Shown: positions 4,709 to 39,390 of the stretch, in pieces
Numbering within the stretch: the first letter of the stretch is position 1
How the letters are laid out: each line of letters begins with the position of its first letter
NCBI GenBank assembly: GCA_038890875.1
Contig: JAWAFA010000001.1
Span: forward strand, 258,617-322,616
Length of the DNA: 64,000 nt
Direction of reading: 5' to 3'
DNA from: Candidatus Pacearchaeota archaeon
GTDB lineage: Archaea > Nanobdellota > Nanobdellia > Pacearchaeales > JAPDKA01
The notes under the pieces: generated by a model
The model's input: the letters and a program-made list of their open reading frames with translations, nothing else
The model's database searches: none
What the model was told of the DNA's origin: nothing
Program-made: the position numbers and the translations under genes

Positions 4709-4709
4709 T

Positions 4710-5102
4710 CTAAAATAATACCTTGTTATTTATAATAAAGTGCTCTACTTCTATTTGTTTGTTTTTAAATTCTCCTTTTATAATAGTTTTGATATCCTTA
4801 TTTTTATCATAATCATACATTACATATGCATCAGTAACTTGATCAATTATCTCTGAAGTTAGTTGAGAAGGCTTAGCGGTCCCATAAACAACTAAAGAAT
4901 ATAAGCTATAGGGCTCGCCTTTCCAGCATTCAAATCTTAGCTCTTTGCTACCTGAAACAAAGCAAATATTAGTAGTAACTTCAATTTTTTTTCCTTCATA
5001 TCTTTTAGGATTTTTTACGAGATCTTCGATAGAGACCTCTTTATAATTGCAAGAGGAAAAAGTTAAAAGAGCTAAAGCAGCTAAGATATTTTTTATTTTC
5101 AT
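4710..5102 (-). CDS. Small secreted lipoprotein-like protein.
   Basis: Signal peptide with a lipobox-like FSSC motif (MKIKNILAALALLTFSSCNYK). 130 aa, no recognisable catalytic motif. Confidence 0.4.
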   Translation of the reverse strand: MKIKNILAALALLTFSSCNYKEVSIEDLVKNPKRYEGKKIEVTTNICFVSGSKELRFECWKGEPYSLYSLVVYGTAKPSQLTSEIIDQVTDAYVMYDYDKNKDIKTIIKGEFKNKQIEVEHFIINNKVLF

Positions 5103-5185
5103 TTTAATTTTTTATTTTCATTTTAATTTTGTTTTCATTAATATAAAAGTTTTAAACTTAATAATCCTTTATAAATTTAATTAAT

Positions 5186-6136: not shown

Positions 6137-6675
6137 TTAAAAAGACAGAAAGCAAAGTTAAACAAGCACAAATCCAGTTTCAAGAAATGGCTTTTGTATT
6201 AGTTGGACTAATTCTTTTTTTTGCTTTGCTTCTAACTTTTTTCAGCATTTTTCAATCAGCAAAAATAAAGCAATTAGCAACAGAAACAAGAAGAGAGGAA
6301 ACTATTGCAAAACTCGAAAGTATTGCTAATATGCCAGAATTTTCTTGCAGGGAAGCTTTTTGCATTGATGAAGAGAAATTGATAGGTTTTCTAAATCTAC
6401 CATTGCAGCAACAAGAAAAATATTTTGAGGCCTGGGAAAAATCAAATTTAATCTTAATAAAAGTTGAAAGGATTTGGCCTGAAAAAAGTGGGAAATGTAA
6501 TGAACAAAATGTTGGCGAGTGCAAGTTTTATGAAATTTTTAATAAAACAATAGGTAAGAACTATGAAGCACATTCAACTTTTATGCCACTATGCTACTAT
6601 TCATCAACACAATGGTACCAAGGATATAGATGCGATATAGGTAAAATTATCGTTGGGTTTGAAATAGCAAAATGA
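6133..6675 (+). CDS. Pilin-like protein with a class III signal peptide.
   Basis: N-terminus ...KVKQAQ/IQFQEMAFVLVGLILFFALLLTFF. Overlapping start/stop with both neighbours (ATGA), which suggests an operon. Confidence 0.45.
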   Translation: MIKKTESKVKQAQIQFQEMAFVLVGLILFFALLLTFFSIFQSAKIKQLATETRREETIAKLESIANMPEFSCREAFCIDEEKLIGFLNLPLQQQEKYFEAWEKSNLILIKVERIWPEKSGKCNEQNVGECKFYEIFNKTIGKNYEAHSTFMPLCYYSSTQWYQGYRCDIGKIIVGFEIAK

Positions 6676-7184
6676 AAGCTAAAACAAAAAAAGCGCAACA
6701 AGAGATTTTTGGTTTCGTAATAATCATTTTACTAGTTATTGTAATTGGTATAATTATTTTAACATTTTCTTTGCAACGAAGCTTAAGAAAGCCAACATTT
6801 GTTATCGATGTAAAAGTAAATGATTTGTTAAATGCTGTAATGCATTATACAACCGGATGCAAAAATAAGAAGATCAGTGAAATAATAGGAATAGTGGTAG
6901 TAAATAGTAATGAAAAATGTGATGGCGAGAATGCAAAAACTTATCTTGAAAATATTCTTAAAAATATTTTAAATGCAAGTTTTCCTGGTTTGGAATATGG
7001 TTATTTGAATGGTTATAATCTAACTATTTTTACCCAACCGCTAATTTCAATTACATCTGGTAAGCTGGAAGGAAATGTTGTTGTCGGTTCTTATATAATC
7101 CCTGTTTTTACAGAAGGTCAAGCAAGCAATATTGAAGCTAGGCTTTATCTTTATTATAGTGGCAAAAAGAGTGAAAAAGCTTAA
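6672..7184 (+). CDS. Pilin-like protein with a class III signal peptide.
   Basis: N-terminus MKAKTKKAQ/QEIFGFVIIILLVIVIGIIIL. This is the classic K-K-A-Q followed by a hydrophobic helix. Confidence 0.5.
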   Translation: MKAKTKKAQQEIFGFVIIILLVIVIGIIILTFSLQRSLRKPTFVIDVKVNDLLNAVMHYTTGCKNKKISEIIGIVVVNSNEKCDGENAKTYLENILKNILNASFPGLEYGYLNGYNLTIFTQPLISITSGKLEGNVVVGSYIIPVFTEGQASNIEARLYLYYSGKKSEKA

Positions 7185-17529: not shown

Positions 17530-18645
17530 TTAGTGATAGTTAATTTTTATATCCTCTGGTTTTACCCCTTTAATTTCTATAGTTATGTTTCCGTATTTTA
17601 TTTTAAAAGTTTCATCGGTTTTGTTTTCAATTTTTGTTTCTATTTCTTTTATTTCCACTTTTTCTTGCTTAACCTCTTTTTTCCTTTCTCTTTTTTCTAA
17701 TGTTTGTTCTTTTTTCTTGTTAATCTTTTCAAGTGTTGTTTTTATTTCATCAAGTGAGGAGGCAATTTTTGAAATTTCAAATCCTTGTTTTTTAAGTCTC
17801 TCAAATTTTCTCTTGTAAATAGCTTCTACTTTTTCTTCAAGGGTAGCTTTTTCTCCAAGTTGACAATTTTTTGGTAGCAGAACTATTTGACCCTTTTTAA
17901 GGTACCCTCTTGTTATTTGTGGGTTTAATCTATTAATGAGATGATTATTACAAACTTTTCTAAGATTATATAAATCATTATTCGAGCTAGCATAATAGAT
18001 TTTAGCTTCTGAGAAGATGTCTTTGTCAGTTATTCTTTCTTCAATTTTCTTACATGAGTGAATTGTTTTTAAAATATTATTTATATAATTTCTAATAGTC
18101 TCTACTTTGTTTAACTTTCCAACTTTATCCTCTCCAGCAACATAAGCTACTAAAGCATCTTCTAGCCTCCTATATTTTTCTATCAAATCTCTTATTTCTT
18201 CAACTCCGGCAATGATGCTGAATGGCGAGAATCTCCAATCTTCATAATAGTTAATATTTAAGCCATGCCTCCTTGCAGTTGACTTCATAAGTTGCATTAC
18301 TCCAGCAGCCCATTTTGGGGAAAGTGCATAAGGATTTCCTTTTGATTCAACAAGAATCACTGCGGCAATAGTGCAAAAGTCAATCCCAAAGACATCAGCT
18401 GCAAAATCAATTATTTTTTTATATTCCTCTATATTACTTACCGCATCAATATAGCTTGAATAACAACTATTATCATTACAATAACTTTCAACTTCATTCG
18501 CTACTATTTTCACAATTTTGTTCCCACCAATGAGCCCCCCTCCCTCTAATCCATCCCCTTTAAAACTAGAAACGTTTATATTAAGCAGTGAAGAGAGTAT
18601 AAGAGTAGATAACAACTTTTTGTTATTTTTTATAATTTTTATCAT
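17530..18645 (-). CDS. Secreted lytic transglycosylase (Slt/family-1 SLT domain) with a Lys/Glu-rich coiled-coil C-terminus.
   Basis: Signal peptide. SLT motif I is VILVESKGNPYALSPKWAAGVMQLM (ES-GNP-A-S-AGA-G-MQLM). The C-terminal ~90 aa are a KE-rich coiled coil. Confidence 0.7.
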   Translation of the reverse strand: MIKIIKNNKKLLSTLILSSLLNINVSSFKGDGLEGGGLIGGNKIVKIVANEVESYCNDNSCYSSYIDAVSNIEEYKKIIDFAADVFGIDFCTIAAVILVESKGNPYALSPKWAAGVMQLMKSTARRHGLNINYYEDWRFSPFSIIAGVEEIRDLIEKYRRLEDALVAYVAGEDKVGKLNKVETIRNYINNILKTIHSCKKIEERITDKDIFSEAKIYYASSNNDLYNLRKVCNNHLINRLNPQITRGYLKKGQIVLLPKNCQLGEKATLEEKVEAIYKRKFERLKKQGFEISKIASSLDEIKTTLEKINKKKEQTLEKRERKKEVKQEKVEIKEIETKIENKTDETFKIKYGNITIEIKGVKPEDIKINYH

Positions 18646-18824
18646 TTTGAAATGATATCATTAAGCTTTAAAAATCTTTCTTAAGATGGTACTGTTAATT
18701 TATTGTAGGCGATGATTCTAACAAACAAACCATAAAGCAGTGCCTTTGCGTATCTGATCTTAATTAATTCACAATAGGATAGTGTTCATAAAGTGACTTC
18801 ATCAAGAAATTTATAGCTTAAAAA

Positions 18825-19478
18825 TTATTTTTCAACTATAAACAGTTGTTTTTTCTTTAAAGCCCTTTCTATAATCTCTTTTTCCCTCTCGGTTACTATT
18901 GTATGATAAAAAATTGCATGTCCAAGGTTAACTGCCTTTCCTAAATTTTTAACATTTTTGAGGTATGCACTCGAAAGGTCTGCTCCCCAAAGGTCTGCTC
19001 CCCAAAGGTCTGCTCTCCAAAGGTATGCTCCCGAAAGGTCTGCTCCCGAAAGGCATGCTCTCCAAAGGTATGCTCCCGAAAGGTCTGCTCCCGAAAGGCA
19101 TGCTCTCCAAAGGTCTGCTCCCGAAAGGTCTGCTCCCAAAAGGTCTGCTCCCCAAAGGTTTGCTTCTTTTCCTCTAAAAAATGGTAAATAAAGATTTCTT
19201 GCCACAACACCTCGAAGCTTAGAATTATCCATGATTATAGGATCTAAATCAAGGTTAGCGTTTGTTAAATACTTTTGCAGTTCTTCAAAAGATTCATGAT
19301 CAGCAAGATTAAAACCTTCTTCTAATTCTATTCTAGAAAAATCCCTTTCTCCAGCTAAGATTTTTTTTACAAGTTCGTCTCCTTTCATTGGTATAAGTTG
19401 TGTTACCATATTAATTAAATAAAGATTAAGGTTTATAAATCTTTCGGTTCTTTGACTACTCTTAAGATACGACATCAA
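18825..19478 (-). CDS. Pentapeptide-repeat protein.
   Basis: About 17 consecutive A(D/N)L(S/W)GA pentapeptides (ANLWGADLLGADLSGADLWRACLSGADL...). Confidence 0.8.
   Translation of the reverse strand: MMSYLKSSQRTERFINLNLYLINMVTQLIPMKGDELVKKILAGERDFSRIELEEGFNLADHESFEELQKYLTNANLDLDPIIMDNSKLRGVVARNLYLPFFRGKEANLWGADLLGADLSGADLWRACLSGADLSGAYLWRACLSGADLSGAYLWRADLWGADLWGADLSSAYLKNVKNLGKAVNLGHAIFYHTIVTEREKEIIERALKKKQLFIVEK
18966..19170. repeat. Tandem ~15-bp direct repeat (aaaggtctgctcccc-type, ~13 copies) that encodes the pentapeptide repeats.
   Basis: Visible nucleotide periodicity of 15 bp with minor variants (ggtctgctcccc / ggcatgctctcc / ggtatgctcccg). It produces open frames in five of six frames, which are the ORF-track artefacts at 18941-19210. 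Confidence 0.8.
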
Positions 19479-19829
19479 CCTCTAAAAGACACTATCCCTC
19501 GCGACTTTGATTTTTGCCTTTTGAATGTTGCACGTATTCGGGAGAGATTAACAGCGATTATGTTCAATAAAATCGGCTCTGTGAAAATGTGGTAAGATGT
19601 AGCATTTATAAATGAAAACATTGTAATGAACCATTCTGTCGTTATTTATTTCATCAACAAGAAGCAGAAAGATGGTTACTGATTTGGAAAAATAAATTAG
19701 ACGCAGAATTAGTTGAATATAAAAGAAAAGAGACGATAGAAAAGAAGTTGGTGTAAGAAATGATTCACCTCGCCGATTTTACTTTGCTATCGCAATCGGC
19801 TAACGCCGAGAATATAACACCAATTATGT

Positions 19830-20609
19830 CTAATTGCTCGGCGGCGCTTTCGCTATTTTCCATAGAACCTCAAATTGTTTTATATAAAGGTCAGCTACCT
19901 CTTCACTTTCAATTCTTATAACCAATGGTTTTAATGTAAAAATAAAATAAATAATTTTGTTTCCATAAATAGAATGAACAACTTTATTGTTGAAATATTC
20001 TTTAGGTAAAATTTTAACTTTTACATATGGGTGTTTTGTAATTGATTTTCCTTCTGCAAATAATTGTCTTGAAAAAATTTTGTATTTTTCTCTTAAATTC
20101 CAAAATCTTTTCCATATATATTCAGGAACTTGTTTAATAAATTCTTCTTTTGAAAATGAATTCATTACAAGAATTTCTTTATATTTTCGTTCAATTCCAT
20201 CTTTAATTATATCATTCAAAATATACCTTATTCCTTCTATTCCCTCATAAACTTCAACTTTTGATGTTGTTATTATTTCTTTTTCTTTTAAATCTGCTAT
20301 TTTTTCCTTCAATCTTTGTTTTTGTTTTTCCAGGTATTCTTCCTTTGCCTCTAAAATATTAATCAAATTATTGGGGTCAGTTATTCTAAACAGCTTTATC
20401 TTTCCCTTTATTATATAATTTATCAAGCCTTTTCCTAACAAAGAATTTAAAGAATCATAAACATGGGCTCTTGATATTGTTGTATATCTTGCAATATCAT
20501 AAGCTTTTGCTTCCTTTAATTTCAAGAGGATAAGATAAACTTCAGCCTCATTATTTGTCAATCCCAATTCAATTAAATCCGCTTTTTGTAGCATATTATT
20601 ATTAAACAC
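19830..20609 (-). CDS. TrmB-family transcriptional regulator.
   Basis: N-terminal HTH: LGLTNNEAEVYLILLKLKEAKAYDIARYTTISRAHVYDSLNSLLGKGLI. Full TrmB-like length (259 aa) with a C-terminal effector domain. Divergent from the rSAM gene. Confidence 0.7.
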   Translation of the reverse strand: MFNNNMLQKADLIELGLTNNEAEVYLILLKLKEAKAYDIARYTTISRAHVYDSLNSLLGKGLINYIIKGKIKLFRITDPNNLINILEAKEEYLEKQKQRLKEKIADLKEKEIITTSKVEVYEGIEGIRYILNDIIKDGIERKYKEILVMNSFSKEEFIKQVPEYIWKRFWNLREKYKIFSRQLFAEGKSITKHPYVKVKILPKEYFNNKVVHSIYGNKIIYFIFTLKPLVIRIESEEVADLYIKQFEVLWKIAKAPPSN

Positions 20610-20734
20610 ATTTTCCTTATAAATCTTTCTTTTTTCGTCCTTTAAATGGACAAATAAAATATTTAAATCTTTGAATAATAGTTATAACATGAAAAAAAAT
20701 AATTATAGCATGAAAAAACAGAGAAAAGAAAGAA

Positions 20735-22114
20735 ATGAGAATGGAATCAAAATTACAAAAATCACAGAACCAGTCAGAATCACAAATTTATCAAAAAAAC
20801 ATAAAGGCTTATCCGCAGGATGCACAGTCTGTATTTAATTATCACAAATTACCAACCATACCATTAAAAGACTCTTACTTAATTTATTCTCCTTTTGCTA
20901 GAGAATTTGCTTTAATAAAAAGACATTTACTAAATGAAAAAATACTTTTGAGAAAACTAAAAAAGAGGGGTTTTTTTAATTCAAACCCTTTTCCTCAAGA
21001 AAAAAATACGCTTAAGGTTGGTTTAATAACTACTACTGCTTGTAATCAAAAATGTGCCTACTGCGCTACTTGCGCTGAATTTATAGGAAATAAAAAGATT
21101 TATTCAAAAAAACTTTTTATGGATGAAGACGCCGTTATTTTAACTTTAGATAAATTGCTTAAAAAGTATAAAATAGAAGCGATTAATTTTATGGGCGGGG
21201 AACCTACTTTAAATATGCCTATTATAAAAAAAGTCATAGATTTAATAAATAATAAAAGTAAAAAGACACTATTCTCTATTCAAACAAATGGAGTAATTAA
21301 TAAAGAAGATTTGAATTATCTAATTAGTAAGGGAATCGTTTTCTCGATTTCATGGGATGGAATAGAAAATGATAAATTTAGAGCTTCATCTAAAATTATA
21401 AAGAAAAATATATTAAAACTTGTAAAAAAAGGGGCCTTATTCAAAATTCGTATGACTGTTGGAAAGTGGAATTCAAGCAATATCATAAAGTCTATTAGAT
21501 GGCTTTTAAAAAATGGTGTTAAGTTTATACAACTTGAACCGATGTTACCGGAAGGAAGGGGAAGCAAATTATCTGATCAAAGTTTAACCCCTCAAGAATT
21601 TAAAACAATTTTCTTTAATACCTTAAAAATTGTGGAGAAGAAAAAATGTTTTTTAATAAATTATGCCTTTGCAAATCTTTTTTCACCTAAGCTCTTTTTT
21701 TGTGATTCTGCAGCAGGCAAAAAAATTATATTGAATGCAGACGGAAGTATCTCTTCATGTTACAAAGTCCAAAGAAGAAAAGACCCTCTTTCAGAAAATT
21801 TTATAATTGGGGAATATAATTTTAAAAAAATCAAATTTAAAAAATCAAATTTTAATGTAAATTCTTATCCAACATGTAAGAAATGTGCTTTTTATTACCT
21901 GTGTTCTGGTGCCTGTCCATTTGAAAATATAAAATCTAATGAAGGAGTGGACAAATATTTATGCGACTTAAGAAGTTCTTTATTGATGAGCGGTATTCTT
22001 CATTTGTATAGTTGTAAATTAAAGAAAAATATGTGTAGTTTAGAAGGTCTTTATATTATGGGAAGAATTGCCATGAAAAGAAAATATGATCGTTTGCCAA
22101 ATTTTATGATTTAA
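20735..22114 (+). CDS. Radical SAM enzyme with a C-terminal SPASM/twitch Cys-rich domain and a ~90-aa N-terminal extension.
   Basis: CxxxCxxC radical-SAM motif (TTTACNQKCAYCATC). Auxiliary cluster cysteines follow (CDSAAGK...SSCYK...CKKCAFYYLCSGACPF). Confidence 0.8.
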   Translation: MRMESKLQKSQNQSESQIYQKNIKAYPQDAQSVFNYHKLPTIPLKDSYLIYSPFAREFALIKRHLLNEKILLRKLKKRGFFNSNPFPQEKNTLKVGLITTTACNQKCAYCATCAEFIGNKKIYSKKLFMDEDAVILTLDKLLKKYKIEAINFMGGEPTLNMPIIKKVIDLINNKSKKTLFSIQTNGVINKEDLNYLISKGIVFSISWDGIENDKFRASSKIIKKNILKLVKKGALFKIRMTVGKWNSSNIIKSIRWLLKNGVKFIQLEPMLPEGRGSKLSDQSLTPQEFKTIFFNTLKIVEKKKCFLINYAFANLFSPKLFFCDSAAGKKIILNADGSISSCYKVQRRKDPLSENFIIGEYNFKKIKFKKSNFNVNSYPTCKKCAFYYLCSGACPFENIKSNEGVDKYLCDLRSSLLMSGILHLYSCKLKKNMCSLEGLYIMGRIAMKRKYDRLPNFMI

Positions 22115-22224
22115 AATGAAAGAAGAAATACTAAATTCTTTAAAAGAAAGAGTTAAAATCCATACAAATCATAAAACTTACAAACATGTTTCTTTAAAAA
22201 TTATGGATTAAGAAACTTTGAGAT

Positions 22225-22470
22225 TTATGAAGGCGTTTTTAGATCAGATCATCTCGACCGACAATAGAAATATGCGAATATCTTGTAAATAATCTAAGGC
22301 TATGTTGCAGATATTGGATGTGGAACAGGTATTTATTCAATTTTATGGCAAAACATGGTGCATCTTCGGTTACAGCAATTGATATTGATCCCCGAGCTTG
22401 TAAAAATGTAAAAGAAAATGCTCATCGCAACAAGTTTCTATCGCAAAATGGCCCCCCATCCGAGTGCTGA
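22225..22470 (+). pseudogene. Frameshifted remnant of a PrmA/HemK-like class I SAM methyltransferase.
   Basis: Frame a reads ...VADIGCGTGIYSILWQNMVHL... then a stop. The +1 frame continues as ...KHGASSVTAIDIDPRACKNVKENAHRNKF, which are MTase motifs I and II/III. Locally GC-richer than the flanks, with no intact ORF. Confidence 0.5.
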
Positions 22471-22502
22471 TGGGTATCCTTGACTTCGTCAAGAAGAAAT
22501 TA

Positions 22503-24155
22503 TTATTTTTTGAAGATAGAATATTTCCTTTCTAAAATTTCTTTTGCTTTATCAATTTCTGCTCTAATCTGCTCATCAGTCAAACTATTAGGAGTAGTAT
22601 AAACTTTTCTGAATTCTCTAGGAACATTTTGCAAATTTTGACTTTTTTCTGGAATTCCTAAATATACTGATACATCAGCAGGAGAATATCTTCTAATTTT
22701 ACTGTATGCTTTTTCTAAAGTTTTTCCTGTTCTAACATCATCTTCAATAAGTAGTGTGTGCTTACCCCTAATCACACTTATATCATCTAATTCTTTATAT
22801 GGTCTGTTTTCGGTTCTGCAATATTCGTCTATATAGATATTTCTTATTGGTAAACCCAATAGTTCAAACATACTTGCATATACAAAACCTTCTGGTCCAA
22901 TCGCTACTCCAATATCTACCATACCTTCATCCATGACTTTTCTAACTGAAGAAAAAGAAACAAGTAAATCATGTGGAAAATGTTGTATCTGTAAATTACG
23001 CCTGGCAAAATAATCTAGTGCTTCTTTTTTTAATAGCTCATCTACAACTCTACCGAGAATTTCATATTTTTGAGCTTCTTGGTCTCTACTTCTTAATATA
23101 TTTCTCGTTCCTTCTGGATTTATTAGCAAGGTTTGCCTAAAATTTATTAACTCTTGTTCGATTGTGTGATAAAAATGTTGTACCAATTCATCCATTGGAG
23201 CATAAGAATTATCCAATAATTCAATAAATCTGGTTCTCTGAACAAGTCTTTCTGAGATTTCATCTAAAAGAGCTTCATCTTGAAATGGGATAAAAACAGG
23301 TCTAAGAGCATCTTTAACCCTACCTTCCAGTTTGTCACGCGCTTTCATACAACTTAGCTTGCTCTCTAAAAAATATTTAGCTATTCGTCTAGCAGCAGCA
23401 CTTCCCTTTAACTCATCTTCTTCTAAAAAAGGATTTGAGGTATATAAAGCCACATCACTAGGTATTAATCCTTTTTTATATGGAAGTGTGCTTCTAATTG
23501 TGCTTAATCCAGAAGTTCTGCCTTTCCAAAAAGTATCAAAATTTACAGTATCATTGCCAATGAAAAATTCTTCAGATTTCTCAGATTTCATTCCAGGCCA
23601 TCTGAATAAACCAATATACGCCCCATTAACTTTAACATCCTTTTCTCTTAAGTATCTTGTAACTTCTCTTAATGCTTTACCTGTAACGAAGTCAATATCT
23701 GTAAGCAATACTGATTTCTTGTCACGTAATTGTTTTACTTTTTCATCGTCTATTTGTGGTTCTTTCATATCTCTTTTACGGTGCGAATAATCAATCTCAA
23801 ATATTGGAAAACCTACCATTTCAAAAATTTGTGCATACGGGATTCCTGCATTTTTTATGCCAACAACGGCATCATAATTTTGTCTTAATTGTAAAGCCGC
23901 ATCTACATGAGAAATTAATGGAGAGTCTAAATATCTTTTCCATTGTTCTCTTGCTTTCCATTGCGATAATAGAAATGCTTCTGTGTGTAAAATTCGATCA
24001 TGCGGACTAAGTTCTTCTTTTAATAGAACTTTAGCTAAACTAGCTAAATCTCCTTCAATCCTAGCTGCTTCTTCAGTTATTTCTGGGTTTCTAATTGGTG
24101 AATGAGGTTGAACTATCCGTAGCTCCAATCTTAAACCACAACCGCACATTGTCAT
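22503..24155 (-). CDS. Hypothetical protein with two phosphoribosyltransferase (PRT type I)-like domains in tandem.
   Basis: Two PRPP-binding-loop-like motifs: VLLTDIDFVTGKAL (~residue 150) and TLLIEDDVRTGKTL (~residue 470). 550 aa. Higher GC than the surrounding genes. Confidence 0.45.
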   Translation of the reverse strand: MTMCGCGLRLELRIVQPHSPIRNPEITEEAARIEGDLASLAKVLLKEELSPHDRILHTEAFLLSQWKAREQWKRYLDSPLISHVDAALQLRQNYDAVVGIKNAGIPYAQIFEMVGFPIFEIDYSHRKRDMKEPQIDDEKVKQLRDKKSVLLTDIDFVTGKALREVTRYLREKDVKVNGAYIGLFRWPGMKSEKSEEFFIGNDTVNFDTFWKGRTSGLSTIRSTLPYKKGLIPSDVALYTSNPFLEEDELKGSAAARRIAKYFLESKLSCMKARDKLEGRVKDALRPVFIPFQDEALLDEISERLVQRTRFIELLDNSYAPMDELVQHFYHTIEQELINFRQTLLINPEGTRNILRSRDQEAQKYEILGRVVDELLKKEALDYFARRNLQIQHFPHDLLVSFSSVRKVMDEGMVDIGVAIGPEGFVYASMFELLGLPIRNIYIDEYCRTENRPYKELDDISVIRGKHTLLIEDDVRTGKTLEKAYSKIRRYSPADVSVYLGIPEKSQNLQNVPREFRKVYTTPNSLTDEQIRAEIDKAKEILERKYSIFKK

Positions 24156-24345
24156 ACATATTGATTAACTTGCAAGTTTATAAAGCTTTCTATTAATTAG
24201 TAATTTATAAATAGTAACATGGCAAGCTCCAGGAAAGGCTCTCCAACAAAAACTCCTCCAAGTTAATTCTGTATAAATGAGACAAAAAAGATTTTAATGT
24301 TTAATACATCAACAATAAGTTAACAAAACCCTTAAGATAAACGAC

Positions 24346-25053
24346 CTATAAGCTTAATTTTTCGTACTTATTAACAATTGCATACAATATTCCCTTATTT
24401 GTTTTTTCAAAGTCACGAAGAAATTTTTTAGTGATCTCTTTATTGCCGCCTTCTTTTTTAGGAATCTCAGAAATTTCAGGAATCTTTATTTTATTTAGTA
24501 GACAATAAATTTTATTTTCTTCTTCCTTGCAAAAATAAAGAGGCCTTATTATCTTAATTTTTTTCTTCTCTATAGGGTGGATTATCTCTTTTTCTCCATT
24601 AAAGAAATAATTTAATATACTTACAGCAGCATCATTAAGGCATTCCCCCCTAGCAATTATAGTTTTTAATTTTAATGCAAATTTTTTAATTATTTTCTCT
24701 TCAAAAATTGATTTAGGACTTTGGCTTACAGCAAAATCAATCTTCTTCTTTACACAATAATCTCGAATATATTTGTAATCTTTTCTTTGAGAATATTGAA
24801 TAAATAATGCTATAATATTTATCTTTCTTTGTTGGCAGTATCTATGAAAAAAGTGAAGCAAAGCAAAGTCATTTTTATTACCTTCTCTGACAACAATAAG
24901 GACCTTATCTTTCTTAGGTTTTGTTTTTATCATTTCATAAGCTCTTATCGTTCGTAAGATTTTTTTCTCATAAAACCTAATAAAGTGTCTAGCACATAGT
25001 TTTTTCCCGCTTATATCAGTATAAACTGGCTTTGCATCACATTGCTTGCACAT
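24346..25053 (-). CDS. TtuA/TtcA/NcsA-like PP-loop-superfamily protein with an N-terminal zinc finger and a degenerate PP-loop.
   Basis: N-terminus C-KQ-C...C-AR-H (TtuA-type CxxC...CxxH). C-terminal conserved IIRPLYFCKEEE (the RPL motif). The expected SGGKDS is replaced by VVREGNKND. Confidence 0.35.
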   Translation of the reverse strand: MCKQCDAKPVYTDISGKKLCARHFIRFYEKKILRTIRAYEMIKTKPKKDKVLIVVREGNKNDFALLHFFHRYCQQRKINIIALFIQYSQRKDYKYIRDYCVKKKIDFAVSQSPKSIFEEKIIKKFALKLKTIIARGECLNDAAVSILNYFFNGEKEIIHPIEKKKIKIIRPLYFCKEEENKIYCLLNKIKIPEISEIPKKEGGNKEITKKFLRDFEKTNKGILYAIVNKYEKLSL

Positions 25054-25094
25054 GTAAAAATTTTAAATAAAAGATATTTAAAATTATTGGAAAA

Positions 25095-25697
25095 TTGGAA
25101 AAGATGAAAAAAGTGAAGGAAAAAGAGAAAAAAAGTGAAGTGATAAAAAGCGAAGTTCAGATACCATTTACTTTTGCTATTTTAGTTATTTTTATTTTTG
25201 TATCTTTCTTTTGGCTTGATAAAATAAAAATTCCGAGAAGTTCTACTCTTGATAGCTTGCTCGCTCCATTTTTTGGGGCTTACAGCTATATCAGCCTGGT
25301 CTTTTTAATTTTCCTCGCTGGGGTTTTCTTTAACAGGATTTATAAATCAAACCTAAAGAAAGAGGCAAGTGCTTTGATTATAGCAATTTTGCTTGGCTTC
25401 TTGTTAAAAGCCATTGTTGGAAGAGCAAGACCTACTGAAGGCTTTTATCTTAGCAGTTCTTTTCCGAGCAATCATACTATAGCTATTTTTTCACTACTTA
25501 CATTTTTCCAAGGACTTGCTTTGATTGTTTGGCTTTTGCTAAGCTTGCTAGTTGCTTTTTCAAGAGTTTATTGGGGCTATCATTATTTTAGTGATATTGC
25601 CTTTGGCGCTTTTCTTGGCTATCTCGTCGGGTTTTTGATGAATAAAATATTAAAATCGAAGAAGGAAGGGGAAGCTAGAGCAAAGTCAAGCCAATGA
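25095..25697 (+). CDS. PAP2-family (type 2 phosphatidic acid phosphatase) integral membrane phosphatase.
   Basis: Three PAP2 motifs are present: KAIVGRARP, PSNHT and SRVYWGYHYFSD. Multiple TM helices. Confidence 0.8.
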   Translation: MEKMKKVKEKEKKSEVIKSEVQIPFTFAILVIFIFVSFFWLDKIKIPRSSTLDSLLAPFFGAYSYISLVFLIFLAGVFFNRIYKSNLKKEASALIIAILLGFLLKAIVGRARPTEGFYLSSSFPSNHTIAIFSLLTFFQGLALIVWLLLSLLVAFSRVYWGYHYFSDIAFGAFLGYLVGFLMNKILKSKKEGEARAKSSQ

Positions 25698-25781
25698 GTG
25701 AAGCAAATGAGTGAGAACATAATTTTGATTAGTAGAATAGTAAGTAGTTAGAAAATGCGCTAAAGAAGCAATAACTTTTGC

Positions 25782-26507
25782 TTATAGTAATTTCCAGATT
25801 AATTCAAATATTTTTTTTTGAGTTTGCGCAATATCTTTATTTTTTATTATAACTCCAATTAATTTTTCTTTGTTCATTGTTAGAAACGCTACGTTTTCAT
25901 TATAAATATAAGTCATTGTGTTTATTTTTATTTCTTTTGGAAGAAATTTGGTTTTAGTATAGGTTTTATTTCTTAATTTAAGTTCTTTATTAATTTTGTC
26001 CGTTTTTTCTTGTATTATTCTACAAAATATTTTTTCTTTTATTCTCTTTTCACTCCAGTGAGGAAAATAAAATTCCAAGGTTTTAAATATTTCATCACAT
26101 TCTATTACTAGAATTTCTTCGGGCTTTATTTTTAATATATTTTCTAATATTGTTTTTATTCCTTCAACTCCTTCATAAATTTCTATTTCTGGTTTTTCTT
26201 CTACTGTCTTTTTTATTTGCTCTAATTTTGGAATTATAGATTTAATAGTATTTAATTTTTCTTCTTCTATTTTTAAAACTCTTTTTGGATCAACTGCCTC
26301 AAAATATCTAGTTCCTGATTTGATAGTATAAAAAACAAGTCCTTTTTTTAATAAAGAATTCAAAATACTATAAATTGTTGTCCTAGGAAGATTTAATCTT
26401 TTTGATATTTCATTAACTTTAGAATTACCTAATTTTAATAATTCTATATAGATCTCTGCTTCTTTATCATTTAGTCCTATTTTTTTTAAAGCATATTTTT
26501 CTTCCAT
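25782..26507 (-). CDS. TrmB-family transcriptional regulator, paralogous to the one at 19830-20609.
   Basis: HTH IGLNDKEAEIYIELLKLGNSKVNEISKRLNLPRTTIYSILNSLLKKGLV. Divergently oriented to the three-gene unknown cluster. Confidence 0.65.
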   Translation of the reverse strand: MEEKYALKKIGLNDKEAEIYIELLKLGNSKVNEISKRLNLPRTTIYSILNSLLKKGLVFYTIKSGTRYFEAVDPKRVLKIEEEKLNTIKSIIPKLEQIKKTVEEKPEIEIYEGVEGIKTILENILKIKPEEILVIECDEIFKTLEFYFPHWSEKRIKEKIFCRIIQEKTDKINKELKLRNKTYTKTKFLPKEIKINTMTYIYNENVAFLTMNKEKLIGVIIKNKDIAQTQKKIFELIWKLL

Positions 26508-26756
26508 TTTATTATAATTTTTTCTTTTTTATAAATCTTTTTTATAGTCCATTTTTGACAACAAAAATATAAATAATACAACTACTAAGGAGAGAGTATA
26601 AGAGATTAAAGAAAATGACAAAGGAAAAATATGAAAAAGAAAAAAGATATGTAGAAAGTTATGAAGATTTAGCAAAATATCCTTCATTGTCAGAAGGAAA
26701 GAATGAATTAGAAATCATGTTCAACAAAATAAATCGAACACGACGCGATGAAGTAA

Positions 26757-27650
26757 ATGGAGGGGGTGGAGAAAATGGAATTTGAAAAAATAATTTTGCA
26801 AAAACCAAAAAGAGAAAATTTACCTGAAATGCCAGAGTTAGTTAAACAATATTGTGATTTAAAAAGTTATAAGCCTGCTGGAAAGGTTTTTAGCATAGAA
26901 ATTAAACATAAGAGTAGGGATTCAAAAACAGACGGCATGGCTTATTTCAATGAGCTAGTAGTGAATAAAGAAAATAAAGTAGTCTATAGTAGTGGAATGA
27001 TGAAATATAGAGGAGCTTATAACTGGGAAATTGATAATCACGACACCCAGTTGTTTGATCCTTCAATTTTAGAAGAAAAAAGTAATGAAGTAGTATTTGG
27101 ATTAAGAACTGGTGCAGGAAACATAAAAATATACAGATTAAAGGGAAATGAACTAAAAGAACTTTACACCTTTGACATCGATGGTTATAGGAAAAAGAAG
27201 AAAAGAAATGAATTAATTAAAAAGATTCTTGAAGATCCAGATGAATGGGTGAAGTACATTGAAAATGAGCAAGGGCATCATTGGTATATTGATTCTTCGA
27301 GAATGCGTGATTTGAAAAATGAAAAAGAAAAGGGAAATGAATGGAGGGACGATTACCAAATTCTTGATGACGGAAATTTGATTATAGCACTAGCGAAACA
27401 TTACGATAGAGACTATGATCCTATCGTAGATTGTTATTATGTGTACTTTTGGAAAAAAAGGGTTGGTATGGCAAAATCAAAAACTTACTATACAGGACTT
27501 TGCCACCCTTGGGGAAAATTTTATATAATTGAGGTTAGATTTTTAGAACCAGCATCTTATGATAAAGATAAACAGATAGTTATAGCAAAAATAGGAAATA
27601 AGGGGCAAAACAAAGTAATAGAACACAAATTTAAGTTAGAAGAAAAATAA
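26757..27650 (+). CDS. Hypothetical cytoplasmic protein (cluster gene 1). The true start is probably the ATG at 26775, after a GGAGGGGGTGG SD.
   Basis: 297 aa with no signal peptide or TM and no recognisable motif. Shares a conserved upstream leader with the next gene. Confidence 0.45.
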   Translation: MEGVEKMEFEKIILQKPKRENLPEMPELVKQYCDLKSYKPAGKVFSIEIKHKSRDSKTDGMAYFNELVVNKENKVVYSSGMMKYRGAYNWEIDNHDTQLFDPSILEEKSNEVVFGLRTGAGNIKIYRLKGNELKELYTFDIDGYRKKKKRNELIKKILEDPDEWVKYIENEQGHHWYIDSSRMRDLKNEKEKGNEWRDDYQILDDGNLIIALAKHYDRDYDPIVDCYYVYFWKKRVGMAKSKTYYTGLCHPWGKFYIIEVRFLEPASYDKDKQIVIAKIGNKGQNKVIEHKFKLEEK

Positions 27651-27736
27651 GGAGTTAGAAAATTGAAAGAAGTATAATAACAAAAACAAAAGCCAATCGA
27701 GCACGACGCGATGAAGTAAATGGAGAGGTGAAGAAA

Positions 27737-28519
27737 ATGAAAAATTTCGAAAAGTATGTGGAAGAAGCGAAAGAAGGGAAGAAAATGATAATATATGTGT
27801 CTGACTCGTGTTATTCTGATATCCGTATTCCTCTTGAATATTATAAGTCTAAACTAGAAAGAATGATTTCACTTGATCAGTATACTGAAGATATTGCTAG
27901 TTTTCTATTGCTAATAGATAATGAAAGGACTTTGAGAGGTATTGTACAAGACTATTTATGCGAGTTTGGAAAAGATGAGTTTGGCTTAGTAGAAGCACTA
28001 AAGAAGTTAGTTCCAGAAAAAGATGAAAAATCATCTAAAGTTCTTTTGTATCATGGTCTTTGCAGTGAGTTTAGAAAAGGATTAAAAAAAGAAGAACTAA
28101 AAAAACTTGGAATAGAATATGCCGTAGATTTTCATCATTATCCAGACAATCCATTTGCATACGAATTAGAAGAAACTATAAAAAGTTTGGATTCGAAAAA
28201 ATATGATAACTTAATGAAAGTGATAAATGACACAAAGAAAAGAGAAGAAGAAATTTTGAAACAAGTAAATGAAAAGATTCCTATAAAGTATACAAGTGAT
28301 TTTATTAAAGTAGGAGAGTTTCTAAAAGAGTTAGATTTATCAAAGCAACATTTTTGTTTAAATTATATCATAGGAAAAATCACTGATACAGATTATATGA
28401 GAGGATTCATTTATCTTGGTGCTGGAGAATTAGATGCAGCTAAAAAAATGGCAGACATGACAAACTCTGCCTTTAATAAAGAATGGTTATTAAAAGAAAT
28501 CGAAAAACGAAAAAAGTGA
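27737..28519 (+). CDS. Hypothetical cytoplasmic protein (cluster gene 2).
   Basis: The ORF track uses the GTG at 27728. The ATG at 27737 lies 8 nt after a GGAGAGGTGA SD. No recognisable domain. Confidence 0.45.
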   Translation: MKNFEKYVEEAKEGKKMIIYVSDSCYSDIRIPLEYYKSKLERMISLDQYTEDIASFLLLIDNERTLRGIVQDYLCEFGKDEFGLVEALKKLVPEKDEKSSKVLLYHGLCSEFRKGLKKEELKKLGIEYAVDFHHYPDNPFAYELEETIKSLDSKKYDNLMKVINDTKKREEEILKQVNEKIPIKYTSDFIKVGEFLKELDLSKQHFCLNYIIGKITDTDYMRGFIYLGAGELDAAKKMADMTNSAFNKEWLLKEIEKRKK

Positions 28520-28540
28520 ACGAATGGGTGGTTGAAGAAA

Positions 28541-29209
28541 ATGACAAAACCACTGGAAATATTGGTTGTGGAAGATGGTGTTGAAAATTTAGAAAATTGT
28601 AAAAAAGCATATGAACCACTGATGAAAGAGGGGCTCATTATACCTTATTACGCCACTAATTACAAAGAAGCAGAGCCTTTAATTGATAAAGTGAATGCAG
28701 GAATTTTAGATCTTTATTTTCCAGCAGAAAATGGGGAAGAGATGATCAAAGAATTTGCTAGAAAATACGATAGAGGTAGTGGGTTTCCTAAAGAAGTAAA
28801 AGCTAATGATATGTATCCTATGGGCCTAATCATTGCTGATAAACTTGCTGAACAAGGAAAACCATCAATATTTGTAAGTCCAATTGCTAGTGGCCATGGA
28901 TCACATAACAATCCATTTTATCCATTGAGATATGCTATAGATAGTGAAAAAATACCTAAAGAAATAAAAATAGCATGGTCTGCTTGTGAGAATCCATACA
29001 GTTTTGAGGAATATGGCAGTCCTACATTTGTATCTTATATGTTAAGAGTAGATTCACAATGGTTTAGAGATTACATAGAAAAGATACCAGAAGTATGGCT
29101 TGCTTCTGTTAAAGCAATAGCCGCACTCTTAAAAAGAGAAGATATTTACAATAAAATAAAAGTTGATAAACTTGTAGAAAAAAATATAGAGGAATTTTAT
29201 AAAAAATAG
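28541..29209 (+). CDS. Hypothetical protein whose N-terminus looks like a response-regulator receiver domain (cluster gene 3).
   Basis: LEILVVEDGVENLENCKKAYEPLMKEGLII...AGILDLYFPAENGEEMIKEF was aligned by eye to the REC pattern (acidic pair, a phosphoacceptor-position Asp in ILDL, then a ...P..G.E helix). The C-terminal ~130 aa are unknown. The ORF track uses the TTG at 28532. Confidence 0.4.
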   Translation: MTKPLEILVVEDGVENLENCKKAYEPLMKEGLIIPYYATNYKEAEPLIDKVNAGILDLYFPAENGEEMIKEFARKYDRGSGFPKEVKANDMYPMGLIIADKLAEQGKPSIFVSPIASGHGSHNNPFYPLRYAIDSEKIPKEIKIAWSACENPYSFEEYGSPTFVSYMLRVDSQWFRDYIEKIPEVWLASVKAIAALLKREDIYNKIKVDKLVEKNIEEFYKK

Positions 29210-29511
29210 TAACTTATGGAGATAGAAAGAATCAAATATTTTGATAGCCGTCGGCCAATTTTTATAAAAATAAAAGTTTATTAGATAAATCAAAATTTTT
29301 GAATAATAAGAAAGTATTTTTTAAAAGTTTATTTAAAGATTTAAAAAAAAGATAAGCAAAAAAGCCAGGTAGTTGGATTTTTAGATAAATTTTATTTAAA
29401 AGATCAGTTAGATAGCCACATTTTTGACAGAAAAAAATATTAAAGTTTCAATAAGAATATACAAAAATATAAAAATTAATGAAATAAAAGCTTCGATAGT
29501 TGAGCTACTAA

Positions 29512-29823
29512 ATGACATCTTCCGACATGTTCAAAATTTATAATCAAAAAGATGAATGGCTGTGTGGTTTTCTTGTAGGAAAAAATATAATGCATGTTTA
29601 TTTATATCCAAAAAGAAATTGGAAGAGTAATTTTAAAAGTAATTTACTTTACGAATTTGGCACTGTATACAACCTTATTTTCGAACATTTAATTGCTGAA
29701 GGTTTAGCAGAAAGTATGGAAAAAAATTATTCTTTTCATAAAGCTCTATTCTTCGGAAATAGAATATCCTTTATGGAGTGGATACACACAGTAGAGGACA
29801 TATTAAAAGGGAAGAAAAAATAA
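29512..29823 (+). CDS. Hypothetical small protein inside an otherwise non-coding ~820-bp AT-rich gap.
   Basis: 103-aa ORF with no motif. Coding status is uncertain. Confidence 0.25.
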   Translation: MTSSDMFKIYNQKDEWLCGFLVGKNIMHVYLYPKRNWKSNFKSNLLYEFGTVYNLIFEHLIAEGLAESMEKNYSFHKALFFGNRISFMEWIHTVEDILKGKKK

Positions 29824-30033
29824 ACTGGAAAGAAATATTAAGAAAAAATCCTTTTAGCTTCAAAAATAAATTAAAGAATTGGTTCTATTAGAAACATAAA
29901 TTAGTAAACGTAAAACATGCCTCAAGTACATGCAGGTTTTTTAAGCTTTTGCTCACGTTCATCATCAACATTGAGTTAAAAGCAAAGAAATAAAAATATT
30001 AACAAGCATATATTAGAAGCAAAAAGAGGTCAA

Positions 30034-31344
30034 ATGCCAGACATATGGATTGGAAGAAGTGAAGAGGATAGAAAAAAATTTGGCGATAAGGGCTTGATTT
30101 ATATTGGAAAACTTTGGGTTAGGATGGAACATCTTGTCAATTTAAGTAATCTCGTCTTACTTGATCTTGCAAGAAGTCATATAATAATGGTTTGTGGAAA
30201 AAGAGGTAGTGGAAAGTCATATACGCTTGGAGTTATTGCTGAAGGTATAACAGATATGCCTGAAGAAGTAAAAAGTAACATAGCTCCTCTTATCTTTGAT
30301 ACAATGGGTATTTACTGGAGTATGGCCTATAGAAATGATAAAGAAATAGAACTTTTGCGAGAGTGGCAGCTTAAGCCAAAAGTATTACCTGTCAGAATAT
30401 TTGTACCATATGCTTATTACGACGAATTTGTAAAGCGTGGCATAGGCAAAATCTTACCATTCGCTTTAAAGGTTTCTGATGTTAGCCATGAGGACTGGCT
30501 TATAACTTTTGATTTGGGTTTCACTGATCCAGTAGGAATAGTTATCCAAAAAGCGATAATAAAGTTACGCGAGAAGAAGACTGACTATGACATTGATGAT
30601 ATAATCACTCTAATCAAAGCTGATGAAGAAAGTGAGAAGCAGCATAAGCTAGCTGCTATAAATATATTTGAAGCTGCTAAAGCTTGGGGAATTTTTGCAA
30701 CTAAAGAACAAAAAGCAACAACGTCGAGAGAATTACTAGAGGCAGGTGTAACAACTGTGCTTGATTTGAGTATGTACAGTAGTGTAGGGGCTTATAATGT
30801 TAGAGCTCTTGTTATTGGTCTTCTATGTAAAAAAATTTTCAATGAGCGCATGCTTGCAAGAAAACTTGAAGAAGTAGAAGCAGTAAGAAGAGGGCTTGAG
30901 TATCTTTATTTCAAAGAAAAACGAGAATTGCCACTTGTTTGGATTTTTATCGATGAGATGCATGAATTTTTGCCACGAGAAGGAAAAACAGCAGCAAGCG
31001 ATGCATTAATCCAATTGCTGCGAGAAGGGAGGCAGCCAGGCATAAGTCTTGTGTTTGCTACTCAACAACCAGGAAAACTTCATACAGATGCTATAACTCA
31101 AGCCGACATTATAATTAGCCATAGACTTACAGCAAAGCCTGATTTAGATGCATTAAGTGAAATAATGCAAAGTTACCTTGCCGAAGATATAATTGCTTAC
31201 ATGAATAATCTTCCTCGTTATAGAGGCTCCGCTCTTGTTCTTGATGATAATAGTGAGAGAATATATAGCATCCGTGTTAGACCACGCTTCACTTGGCATG
31301 GTGGAGAAGCACCAACTGCAGTAAAAGTTGAAAAACGAGAATAA
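30034..31344 (+). CDS. HerA/FtsK-superfamily P-loop ATPase (DUF87-like).
   Basis: Walker A VCGKRGSGKSYTLG. Walker B VWIFIDEMHEF. A HerA/VirB4-type ...LVFATQQPGKL...ADIIISHRLT segment. No TM. Confidence 0.65.
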   Translation: MPDIWIGRSEEDRKKFGDKGLIYIGKLWVRMEHLVNLSNLVLLDLARSHIIMVCGKRGSGKSYTLGVIAEGITDMPEEVKSNIAPLIFDTMGIYWSMAYRNDKEIELLREWQLKPKVLPVRIFVPYAYYDEFVKRGIGKILPFALKVSDVSHEDWLITFDLGFTDPVGIVIQKAIIKLREKKTDYDIDDIITLIKADEESEKQHKLAAINIFEAAKAWGIFATKEQKATTSRELLEAGVTTVLDLSMYSSVGAYNVRALVIGLLCKKIFNERMLARKLEEVEAVRRGLEYLYFKEKRELPLVWIFIDEMHEFLPREGKTAASDALIQLLREGRQPGISLVFATQQPGKLHTDAITQADIIISHRLTAKPDLDALSEIMQSYLAEDIIAYMNNLPRYRGSALVLDDNSERIYSIRVRPRFTWHGGEAPTAVKVEKRE

Positions 31345-39383: not shown

Positions 39384-39390
39384 ACTTAAA

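Follow-up and report, generated by a model that had tools for sequence, protein, structure and literature searches.

Introduction

Extracellular 'murein-like lytic transglycosylase' proteins were reported in Pacearchaeota and Woesearchaeota by Castelle et al. (2021; PMC8204110), who credited the first cases to Rinke 2013 and Castelle 2015 and considered that some of these archaea may be bacterial episymbionts, and GH23 enzymes were then described in 'vampiristic' Woesearchaeota (Vigneron et al., 2022; PMC9723730), the point about bacterial-wall enzymes being restated in two further papers (PMC10936187; PMC11537232). Modular peptidoglycan hydrolases were recently found in ~5% of archaeal genomes, prominently in Nanoarchaeota, with more than one such enzyme in 12% of the positive genomes and M23 peptidases in Nanoarchaeia, and two M23 enzymes of Halogranum salarium were shown by experiment to kill a bacterium (Strock et al., 2025, PLoS Biol; PMC12352652). 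The present analysis concerns a gene of this type, here termed SLT1, which lies together with a paralogue, SLT2, in a 64-kb stretch of DNA from a Candidatus Pacearchaeota archaeon (64,000 nucleotides of contig JAWAFA010000001.1; this whole stretch is referred to below as the window). That SLT1 encodes a lytic transglycosylase-type protein is already known, both from its annotation in GenBank and as a published theme (PMC8204110; PMC9723730; PMC10936187; PMC12352652), and the aim here is to place it among its relatives and to weigh what it may do. The two genes are as follows.

17530..18645, minus strand: SLT1 gene, ATG start, 371 amino acids, MltD-like, predicted to be secreted
31443..32411, plus strand: SLT2 gene, 322 amino acids, with a predicted signal peptide, an SLT domain and two canonical LysM domains

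The predicted parts of SLT1 are, in order, a signal peptide, the SLT domain, a divergent LysM domain, a long helix and a β-hairpin. SLT1 is identical to the deposited proteins MEM4318498.1/MEM4358023.1, which GenBank already names correctly ('lytic transglycosylase domain-containing protein [Candidatus Pacearchaeota archaeon]'), and the contig that carries MEM4318498.1, from a Candidatus Pacearchaeota metagenome-assembled genome (MAG), is 486,256 bp long, an indirect indication that the genome of the host is small. An identical gene is present in the source samples SRR27730023 and SRR27730025. SLT2 (P0008 in our homologue set) is 100% identical to MEM4318689.1, 'lytic transglycosylase [Candidatus Pacearchaeota archaeon]'. 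It begins 12,798 nucleotides past SLT1 (12.8 kb), where a preliminary reading made from the DNA letters alone (hereafter the sequence-only reading) had noticed a second SLT gene 13 kb downstream, and it shares 27% identity with SLT1.

The characterised enzyme closest in layout to both proteins is MltD (family 1D), which Gram-negative bacteria possess as a membrane-bound lytic murein transglycosylase and in which a family-1 SLT domain is likewise followed by LysM, with the Glu-Ser and GxMQ motifs common to MltD and SLT1, and whose two-LysM layout is that of SLT2; MltD structures (8rhe/8rhf/8rhi) are also the best structural match to the SLT1 model. However, the MltD equivalog model (NCBIfam NF008050) gives SLT1 22.6 and SLT2 55.9 bits versus a cut-off of 508, so SLT1 is not an MltD orthologue, and structure-based identity between MltD and SLT1 is only ~19-20%. 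The lipoprotein anchor of MltD is absent in both archaeal proteins, since neither of their N-termini (MIKIIKNNKKLLSTLILSSLLNINVSSF and MKNHLKKIINFLLASSIFFTYTAAAVP) has a Cys ending the hydrophobic region and hence neither has a lipobox. SLT1 further differs from MltD in having one degenerate LysM, an additional ~60-residue helix and a C-terminal β-hairpin, and the SLT1 group carries after the QLM helix a signature, ED[WYR]R, that is restricted to seven sequences. Unlike MltD, SLT1 belongs to a host that is not known to make murein, so its role would not be remodelling of its own wall.

With the fam00969 proteins (PMC8204110) and the GH23 enzymes (PMC9723730), SLT1 and SLT2 share the phylum, the catalytic domain, the predicted extracellular site and the proposed role on bacterial walls. 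The fam00969 proteins were stressed as being very large (up to ~3000 amino acids), whereas SLT1 and SLT2 are compact (371/322 amino acids), a comparison made by description; LysM is not mentioned in PMC8204110, nor is a compact SLT-LysM subtype singled out there. The enzymes of Strock et al. (2025) have in common with SLT1 and SLT2 the combination of a catalytic and a cell-wall-binding domain, the signal peptide and an antagonistic or host-directed interpretation, but those tested were haloarchaeal M23 peptidases, neither SLT enzymes nor from DPANN archaea. Finally, T7 gp16, phage lytic tail proteins and VirB1-type proteins share the SLT domain and the logic of a local wall breach; these modules differ in that the likeness of SLT1 to them is limited to the SLT domain, with identities of up to 37%, and SLT1 is chromosomal, syntenic and of native composition, outside any phage or type IV secretion context.

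Catalytic Domain of SLT1

The evidence for the enzymatic identity of SLT1 comes from the following segment.

18034..18465, minus strand: SLT domain of SLT1 (GH23, lysozyme-like), residues 61-204

Pfam SLT (PF01464; gathering cut-off 21.3) matches SLT1 over residues 79-182 with 70.4 bits (E=1.2e-19), and every significant match of SLT1 in Pfam, NCBIfam and the PDB is a murein lytic transglycosylase. The NCBIfam models for E. coli EmtA, MltC, MltD, MltF and Slt are matched at sub-threshold level only, and no pseudomurein endoisopeptidase (Pei-type) or pseudomurein-binding family appears among the matches in these three collections at E<=1. The motif ESKGNPYALSPKWAAGVMQLM occupies residues 100-120, with the codon of the catalytic Glu100 (GAA) at 18346..18348 on the minus strand. 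When SLT1 was compared with the PDB by phmmer, its segment AVILVESKGNPYALSPKWAAGVMQL was aligned to a segment of E. coli MltE, such that 'VESKGNP...GVMQL' of SLT1 pairs with 'IESGGNP...GLMQL' of MltE, Glu100-Ser101 falls on the catalytic Glu64-Ser65, and Ser109 falls on Ser73. In an alignment of 26 homologues E100, S109, A113, G115, Q118 and Y168 are invariant, and GVMQ, which contains the invariant G115 and Q118, is the SLT1 form of the family-1 G-L-M-Q motif. By these features the domain of SLT1 is of the family-1 SLT/GH23 type: it contains the catalytic Glu-Ser pair, GxMQ and AYxxG, the last of which reads AYVAG where the family-1 motif is AYNxG. The sequence-only reading, which had recognised an Slt-type lytic transglycosylase with a near-canonical family-1 motif and had named the hidden Markov model match and the catalytic Glu among the checks to be made, is borne out on all of these points.

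In SLT2 the corresponding domains are placed as follows, and Pfam recognises both types, SLT with 51.2 bits (E=1.1e-13) and the two LysM domains with E=2.4e-23.

31674..32009, plus strand: SLT domain of SLT2, with the Glu100 codon at 31740..31742
~32100..32228 and 32262..32399, plus strand: LysM domains of SLT2

An Archaeal Host

The host of SLT1 is a DPANN archaeon, Candidatus Pacearchaeota, as is evident from the genes that share its contiguous sequence as well as from the NCBI label, and the sequence-only reading was correct in assigning the gene to an archaeon. Genes for a family-B polymerase (PolB), FEN1, Dpo4 and Trm5/Tyw2 lie directly beside SLT1, and further along the window are those for RadA, ribosomal protein S15 with an S13/S15 N-terminal domain and a GAN/RecJ-like DHH protein, together with genes for proteasome alpha, SBDS, exosome subunits of the Rrp4/Rrp41/Rrp42 type and Rpb6. 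The window also contains an archaeal RNase P RNA.

35129..35356, minus strand: archaeal RNase P RNA, Rfam RF00373 (RNaseP_arch), 145 bits versus a gathering score of 84

This RNA is shortened, the full 288-position Rfam model being covered in only 228 nucleotides.

Putative Export Signal, LysM-Like Domain and Predicted Structure

The non-catalytic parts of SLT1 and a candidate promoter element were located as follows.

18565..18645, minus strand: N-terminal Sec-type signal-peptide-like segment, residues 1-27, MIKIIKNNKKLLSTLILSSLLNINVSS
17872..18015, minus strand: divergent LysM-like domain, residues 211-258, β-α-α-β
17623..17811, minus strand: long Lys/Glu-rich helix, residues 279-341, a single helix in AlphaFold2
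17572..17607, minus strand: C-terminal β-hairpin, residues 347-358, FKIKYGNITIEI
18667..18674, minus strand: TATA-box-like TTTTTAAA, 22-29 nucleotides upstream of the SLT1 ATG

The N-terminus of SLT1 consists of three Lys residues, a 13-residue hydrophobic core and a polar NVSS, with a hydropathy peak of 2.2 (Kyte-Doolittle, 11-residue window), and AlphaFold2 models a helix at residues 9-21, at a low predicted local distance difference test score (pLDDT), followed by a Gly-rich linker. The signal peptide that the sequence-only reading had seen ahead of the SLT domain is in this sense retained as a signal-peptide-like segment, a call made by hydropathy heuristic only. The AlphaFold2 model of SLT1, built from the 26-sequence alignment, has a mean pLDDT of 80.6 and exceeds 90 over residues ~70-280. 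The SLT domain (61-204) is modelled as all-helical with a pLDDT >90, and it is followed by a unit with a strand at 215-218, helices at 225-232 and 236-240, and a strand at 254-257. When aligned by hhalign to the LysM domains of the paralogues, this unit matches with 95.6% probability (E=1.2e-8), and an 'LNPQ' motif is common to it and to them. Sequence and model together identify this β-α-α-β unit as a divergent LysM.

Beyond the LysM-like unit, helix 279-341 is probably a coiled-coil stalk, to judge from the model, and the wider segment (residues 263-345) is 29% K+R and 24% D+E; at the position of the helix the Pacearchaeota orthologue P0002 has a longer charged linker that is partly low-complexity. 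The C-terminal hairpin FKIKYGNITIEI is kept in P0002 as VVEFDDVTIVIRGV, and its strands (347-351 and 354-358) are modelled with a pLDDT of only ~56-65. A shared C-terminal sorting signal was considered for this hairpin and dropped, because its motif occurs in no other secreted protein of the window.

Foldseek searches of the PDB with the SLT1 model returned MltD of P. aeruginosa (8rhf/8rhi/8rhe) as the top match (E=4.4e-7 over 230 columns, root-mean-square deviation 3.1 Å), and further matches with a probability of 1.00 were MltE, MltC, MltF, Slt70 and goose-type (g-type) lysozymes. Each of the six Cys residues of SLT1 has a counterpart at the same position in P0002; SLT2 likewise contains six, of which three (C91, C198 and C232) fall at aligned positions. 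Upstream of the gene, TTTTTAAA would fit a leaderless archaeal transcript of SLT1, and as a TATA box it is weak because such strings are common at ~30% GC.

Relatives, Synteny and Origin of the SLT-LysM Proteins

A HMMER scan of 1.84 billion representative proteins gave 7012 matches at E<=1e-3, only two of which reach E<=1e-30, namely the cluster of SLT1 itself and P0002, which is 49% identical to SLT1 over 253 residues. Beyond a handful of Pacearchaeota the homologues are ~30-45% identical, in the SLT domain only, and the few of these outside homologues whose source is named are bacterial or generic 'soluble lytic murein transglycosylase-like' proteins. The ED[WYR]R motif is present in SLT1, P0002, SLT2, P0003, P0009, P0058 and P0086, and in none of the other ~150 best matches. 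All seven combine SLT with a canonical or divergent LysM, P0003 being named a LysM protein. SLT1, SLT2, P0002 and P0003 have an NCBI Pacearchaeota label and P0009, P0058 and P0086 carry no taxonomic label, and the members of known origin of this small SLT-LysM group are all Pacearchaeota. In a neighbour-joining tree the seven sequences form an exclusive group of moderate support, and next outward, through a link with a bootstrap of 18/100, are SLT-LysM or SLT-only proteins, including two that IMG calls MltD and P0089, which sits among archaeal genes (Nre and a diphthine-synthase-type methylase). No donor is claimed, because the SLT domain, at ~120 columns, is too short.

The two paralogues are old. 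P0002, which is of the SLT1 type, and P0003, which is of the SLT2 type and adjoins genes for PolD, Cdc6, Spt4 and Rpb7, are from the same assembly (GCA_038858415.1), and the duplication is therefore older than the split of that lineage from the window organism. In related genomes an SLT2-type gene comes directly after the PolD large subunit (L090 13715..15556, Pacearchaeota GCA_038846035.1), where it abuts a TctA-family transporter and lies ~4.6 kb from a GlmS-like glucosamine-6-phosphate synthase (GATase plus SIS); the presence of this amino-sugar metabolism gene may be coincidental.

SLT1 itself has an orthologue in the same place in the MAG JZ-1_201803_bins_104 (L002), in the order RsmB-PolB-FEN1-Dpo4-Trm5-SLT1. 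Identity between orthologues of the neighbouring genes ranges from 64 to 88%, against 49% for SLT1, where it extends over the N-terminal two-thirds only. The SLT1 orthologue in L002 and that in a second locus, L001, are each flanked by an M23 peptidase that has its own hydrophobic, signal-peptide-like N-terminus and whose closest NCBIfam models are the murein DD-endopeptidases MepM, ShyA/C and Pgp3, all of them below their cut-offs. This M23 peptidase is absent from the window (tblastn E>1).

A 3-sequence alignment searched against GTDB species representatives found one Pacearchaeota locus and one distant Desulfurellales match. A word-indexed protein search was unusable for a taxonomic census: SLT1 alone gave only two matches, and a profile of 8 sequences failed to recover known members of the group and brought in mainly bacterial MltD-like and LysM proteins. 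A metagenome scan (241 M records) yielded 80 loci, with SLT-domain matches only, none above 44% identity and the best-scoring at 35%, and it brought no new close relative to light. Viral contigs, a phage database and PHROGs likewise gave SLT-domain matches only, at <=40% identity; the PHROG phage lytic tail and endolysin families match this domain with E ~1e-15, and T7-like gp16 proteins match it as well. A phage origin of SLT1 was rejected on the basis of these distant, SLT-domain-only matches; no integrase or phage structural genes were found near SLT1, and nine window open reading frames (ORFs) without Pfam matches (8..7184 and 26757..29209) had no PHROG match. P0143 (3326 amino acids), considered as a 'large DPANN LT', was discarded since it is an SLT plus ART-PolyVal polyvalent protein.

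The composition of SLT1 is that of its surroundings. Its GC content is 0.301 and its GC content at third codon positions (GC3) is 0.226, versus window means of 0.316 and 0.227, its codon usage is typical of the window, and the composition of SLT2 is likewise native. Recent horizontal gene transfer is rejected on these grounds, and any transfer from bacteria must be old. A bacterial origin is the most economical explanation, because SLT is near-ubiquitous in bacteria (PMC8204110) and the substrate would be bacterial. The horizontal transfer from bacteria that the sequence-only reading had suggested is favoured, as regards its bacterial source, by the distribution of the family; native composition, synteny at 49% identity and the sharing of both paralogues with another genome point to an old event and not a recent one. 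Comparison of the sequences indicates that the SLT family has long been resident in this lineage and evolves fast there. It was probably acquired from bacteria at an early date, was then duplicated and has since been inherited vertically, the direction of transfer being deduced from its distribution.

Gene Neighbourhood

Several other genes of the window are of interest in this context, and three of them were located as follows.

30034..31344, plus strand: HerA/FtsK-superfamily DUF87 ATPase, directly upstream of SLT2, Pfam DUF87 2.1e-7
32462..33880, plus strand: FKBP-like plus DsbA/thioredoxin-like protein, 472 amino acids, membrane-anchored or secreted, downstream of SLT2
43922..44407, minus strand: VKOR homologue, E=1.1e-21

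The DUF87 ATPase weakly resembles HerA, anti-phage HerA and the DNA-translocating ATPase CedD; its scores against the NCBIfam HerA and CedD models are far under the cut-offs, and its PDB matches are HerA proteins. No other protein of the neighbourhood is as well conserved, its identity between two Pacearchaeota being 88%. Its orthologue in the related MAG (L002 5659..6966) is two genes from the SLT1 orthologue, and the ATPase thus adjoins peptidoglycan hydrolase genes in both genomes; a functional tie between them is speculation.

The ~11.4 kb between SLT1 and the DUF87 ATPase (18646..30033) are rearranged relative to L002 5467..7896 and are mostly without counterpart in the 16.8-kb stretch of that MAG, which carries the M23 peptidase where the window has this DNA. 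A pentapeptide-repeat protein, two TrmB regulators, a radical-SAM protein, a 550-residue protein resembling a double phosphoribosyltransferase and three orphan ORFs are unmatched, and NcsA/TtuA-like and PAP2 genes in the same stretch have L002 orthologues. A Logan assembly of the same organism ends ~400 bp upstream of SLT1 (L093). The pentapeptide-repeat protein (18825..19478, minus strand, Pfam E=5e-22) has repeats that give long spurious ORFs in four other frames (18941..19210), and such DNA could mislead ORF-based annotation.

For the protein downstream of SLT2 (32462..33880) Pfam gives weak matches to DSBA, GILT and Thioredoxin_4, every score being below its cut-off, and the FKBP-like match is likewise weak and sub-threshold. 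Together with the VKOR homologue it suggests a bacterial-type system for extracytoplasmic disulfide formation, which would fit the six Cys residues of SLT1 and SLT2 and the Cys-rich secreted proteins of the window.

Two clusters of small proteins (108-316 amino acids), at 4169..7184 and 38180..40134 (both plus strand), have N-termini like archaeal class III (type IV pilin-like) signal peptides, in which a Lys/Arg-rich start and a K/R-A/G-Q/F junction precede a long hydrophobic helix, as in MKTAKKAKRAQ/TSVFGLILATF, MKAKTKKAQ/QEIFGFVIIIL and MKEKKAQ/LLGSEYLLWI (the slash marks the junction). Neither cluster has any Pfam match and the first also has no PHROG match; from their N-termini these proteins may build pili by which cells attach to one another. 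Immediately ahead of this first cluster (8..4172, plus strand) are orphans of 645 and 745 amino acids, neither with a Pfam or PHROG match. The larger of them contains 50 cysteines and begins like a signal peptide, which makes it a candidate for a secreted adhesin or a surface protein.

Beside RadA is a gene for a GGDEF diguanylate-cyclase protein (42613..43638, minus strand; Pfam E=1.5e-36, TIGR00254 136 bits versus a cut-off of 37.4). Cyclic di-GMP signalling is essentially bacterial, and this looks like another bacterial-type gene here for that reason. A subtilase of 1006 amino acids (52026..55046, plus strand; Peptidase_S8 E=8e-45) has hydrophobic segments at its N- and C-termini and Ig-like matches below significance, and probably serves as an extracellular protease that is anchored at the surface and belongs to the same outward-facing toolkit.

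Proposed Function and Alternatives

We consider it likely, on the combined evidence of sequence and model, that SLT1 is an exported enzyme acting on bacterial peptidoglycan. To our knowledge, Pacearchaeota do not make murein, and the most likely substrate of SLT1 is for this reason a bacterial wall; substrate, export and role are all deduced by analogy and from sequence. In such a scheme the Sec-type N-terminus would carry SLT1 out of the cell, its three Cys pairs would be oxidised by the nearby VKOR/DsbA-like system, and the LysM-like domain would anchor the enzyme on glycan strands containing N-acetylglucosamine (GlcNAc). The SLT domain, with Glu100 as the single acid/base catalyst, would then cut the β-1,4 bond between N-acetylmuramic acid (MurNAc) and GlcNAc, leaving 1,6-anhydro-MurNAc ends, a non-hydrolytic cleavage chemistry that is taken over from characterised family-1 lytic transglycosylases. 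The target may be a living bacterium, whether host, prey or competitor, or else debris of bacterial walls; use against a bacterial host or partner, which the sequence-only reading had raised, would be one form of this. SLT2 probably works alongside SLT1, and in related genomes the neighbouring M23 endopeptidase may do so too.

Several observations weigh against this interpretation. We know of no Pacearchaeote for which a bacterial host has been shown. In SLT1 and P0002 the family-1 A-Y-N-x-G motif reads AYVAG, SLT2 having retained AYNAG, the match of SLT1 to Pfam LysM is below significance, and the canonical GDT loop of LysM has become NND in SLT1 and GDS in P0002. Chitin, too, can be a substrate of LysM and GH23 enzymes (PMC12352652). 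As to origin, the tree supports the SLT-LysM group with a bootstrap of 53/100 (SLT1 plus P0002, 81; SLT2 plus P0003, 99) and gives it a bacterial MltD-like sister at 18/100. The sequence-only reading had looked to phylogeny to separate a placement with bacterial and phage Slt proteins from one in a pseudomurein-related clade; no pseudomurein-related family was matched, yet at that support the tree leaves the position unresolved, and the case for a bacterial origin consequently rests on distribution.

An unlikely but closely related explanation is nutrient scavenging, in which peptidoglycan debris (necromass) would be digested for GlcNAc, anhydro-MurNAc and amino acids without an intimate host. 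Here the enzymology would be identical to that of an attack on living bacteria, the predicted secretion of the 1006-residue S8 subtilase fits extracellular digestion, peptidoglycan from dead bacteria has been proposed as an amino-acid source for Pacearchaeota, and muramoyl-tetrapeptide carboxypeptidase is abundant in their genomes (PMC11537232). On the other hand, NagZ, AnmK, MurQ or LdcA-like genes for the uptake and catabolism of muropeptides were not seen in the 64-kb window, and its two pilin-like clusters fit cell-cell contact better. Scavenging overlaps with the favoured view of an exported enzyme that acts on bacterial peptidoglycan, and sequence alone does not separate the two.

That favoured view can be extended to a more elaborate one, which we regard as improbable, in which the compact SLT-LysM enzymes would be parts of one dedicated machine for breaching the wall of a bacterial host. 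SLT1 would be displayed at the surface through its helical stalk and hairpin and would act with the M23 peptidase, the HerA/FtsK-like ATPase and the type-IV-pilin-like clusters. If true, such a machine would breach the sacculus at one spot, leading to a cytoplasmic bridge or to uptake of DNA or metabolites, and would be an archaeal analogue of wall-breaching systems of the VirB1/VirB4 type.

That the substrate is a different GlcNAc polymer, such as chitin, chito-oligosaccharides or an archaeal surface glycan, with LysM serving in chitin binding, is a little harder still to credit. Besides murein, chitin is a ligand of LysM (PMC12352652, citing Visweswaran 2012), MltD was crystallised with chito-tetraose (8rhi) and MltE with chitopentaose (4hjy), and the goose-type lysozymes share the SLT1 fold. 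However, the E-S, GxMQ and AYxxG motifs and the nearest neighbours in both sequence and structure are those of murein lytic transglycosylases, and the SLT1 orthologue of a related genome adjoins an M23 peptidase whose closest models are murein DD-endopeptidases, a neighbour that weighs against chitin because M23 enzymes cut peptide cross-links, which chitin does not have.

Very improbable is own-envelope housekeeping, in which SLT1 would open a murein-like or other glycan wall of the archaeon itself for growth, division, pili or secretion, as do MltD, VirB1 and FlgJ. The gene is chromosomal, of native composition and in the conserved core neighbourhood PolB-FEN1-Dpo4-Trm5, it has HerA/FtsK-like ATPase and type-IV-pilin-like genes nearby, and bacterial SLT enzymes are often dedicated to such machines. 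Against the housekeeping explanation, murein synthesis is known in no archaeon, pseudomurein is confined to Methanobacteria and Methanopyri (PMC12352652), and genes of the Mur or MraY type are not in the 64-kb window. A further point against it is that the β-1,3 bonds of pseudomurein resist lysozyme-type enzymes. Moreover, SLT1 has diverged faster than its housekeeping neighbours, which is typical of a protein at an interaction surface and too fast for housekeeping.

Finally, a phage or plasmid endolysin or a mis-binned bacterial contig, which the PHROG and gp16 matches of the SLT domain and the ~11 kb of non-syntenic DNA beside SLT1 might have suggested, is effectively refuted by contiguity with the archaeal RNase P RNA, PolB, RadA and proteasome genes, by the orthologue that an independent Pacearchaeota MAG carries in the same Trm5-Dpo4-FEN1-PolB setting and by native composition, the phage and viral matches being distant and no integrase or phage structural genes having been found nearby.

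Significance

We know of no Pacearchaeote that has been cultivated and of no host for the group. Peptidoglycan enzymes in organisms without murein of their own are among the few genomic clues to DPANN archaea living on bacteria rather than on archaea. What the present analysis adds is that the small Pacearchaeota enzymes are MltD-like SLT-LysM proteins that make up a small, separate group comprising two old paralogues, in a conserved chromosomal context with an M23 neighbour in one relative and with no sign of recent transfer. Being compact (~220-330 residues when mature), SLT1 and SLT2 are convenient candidates for the first biochemistry of a DPANN peptidoglycan enzyme.

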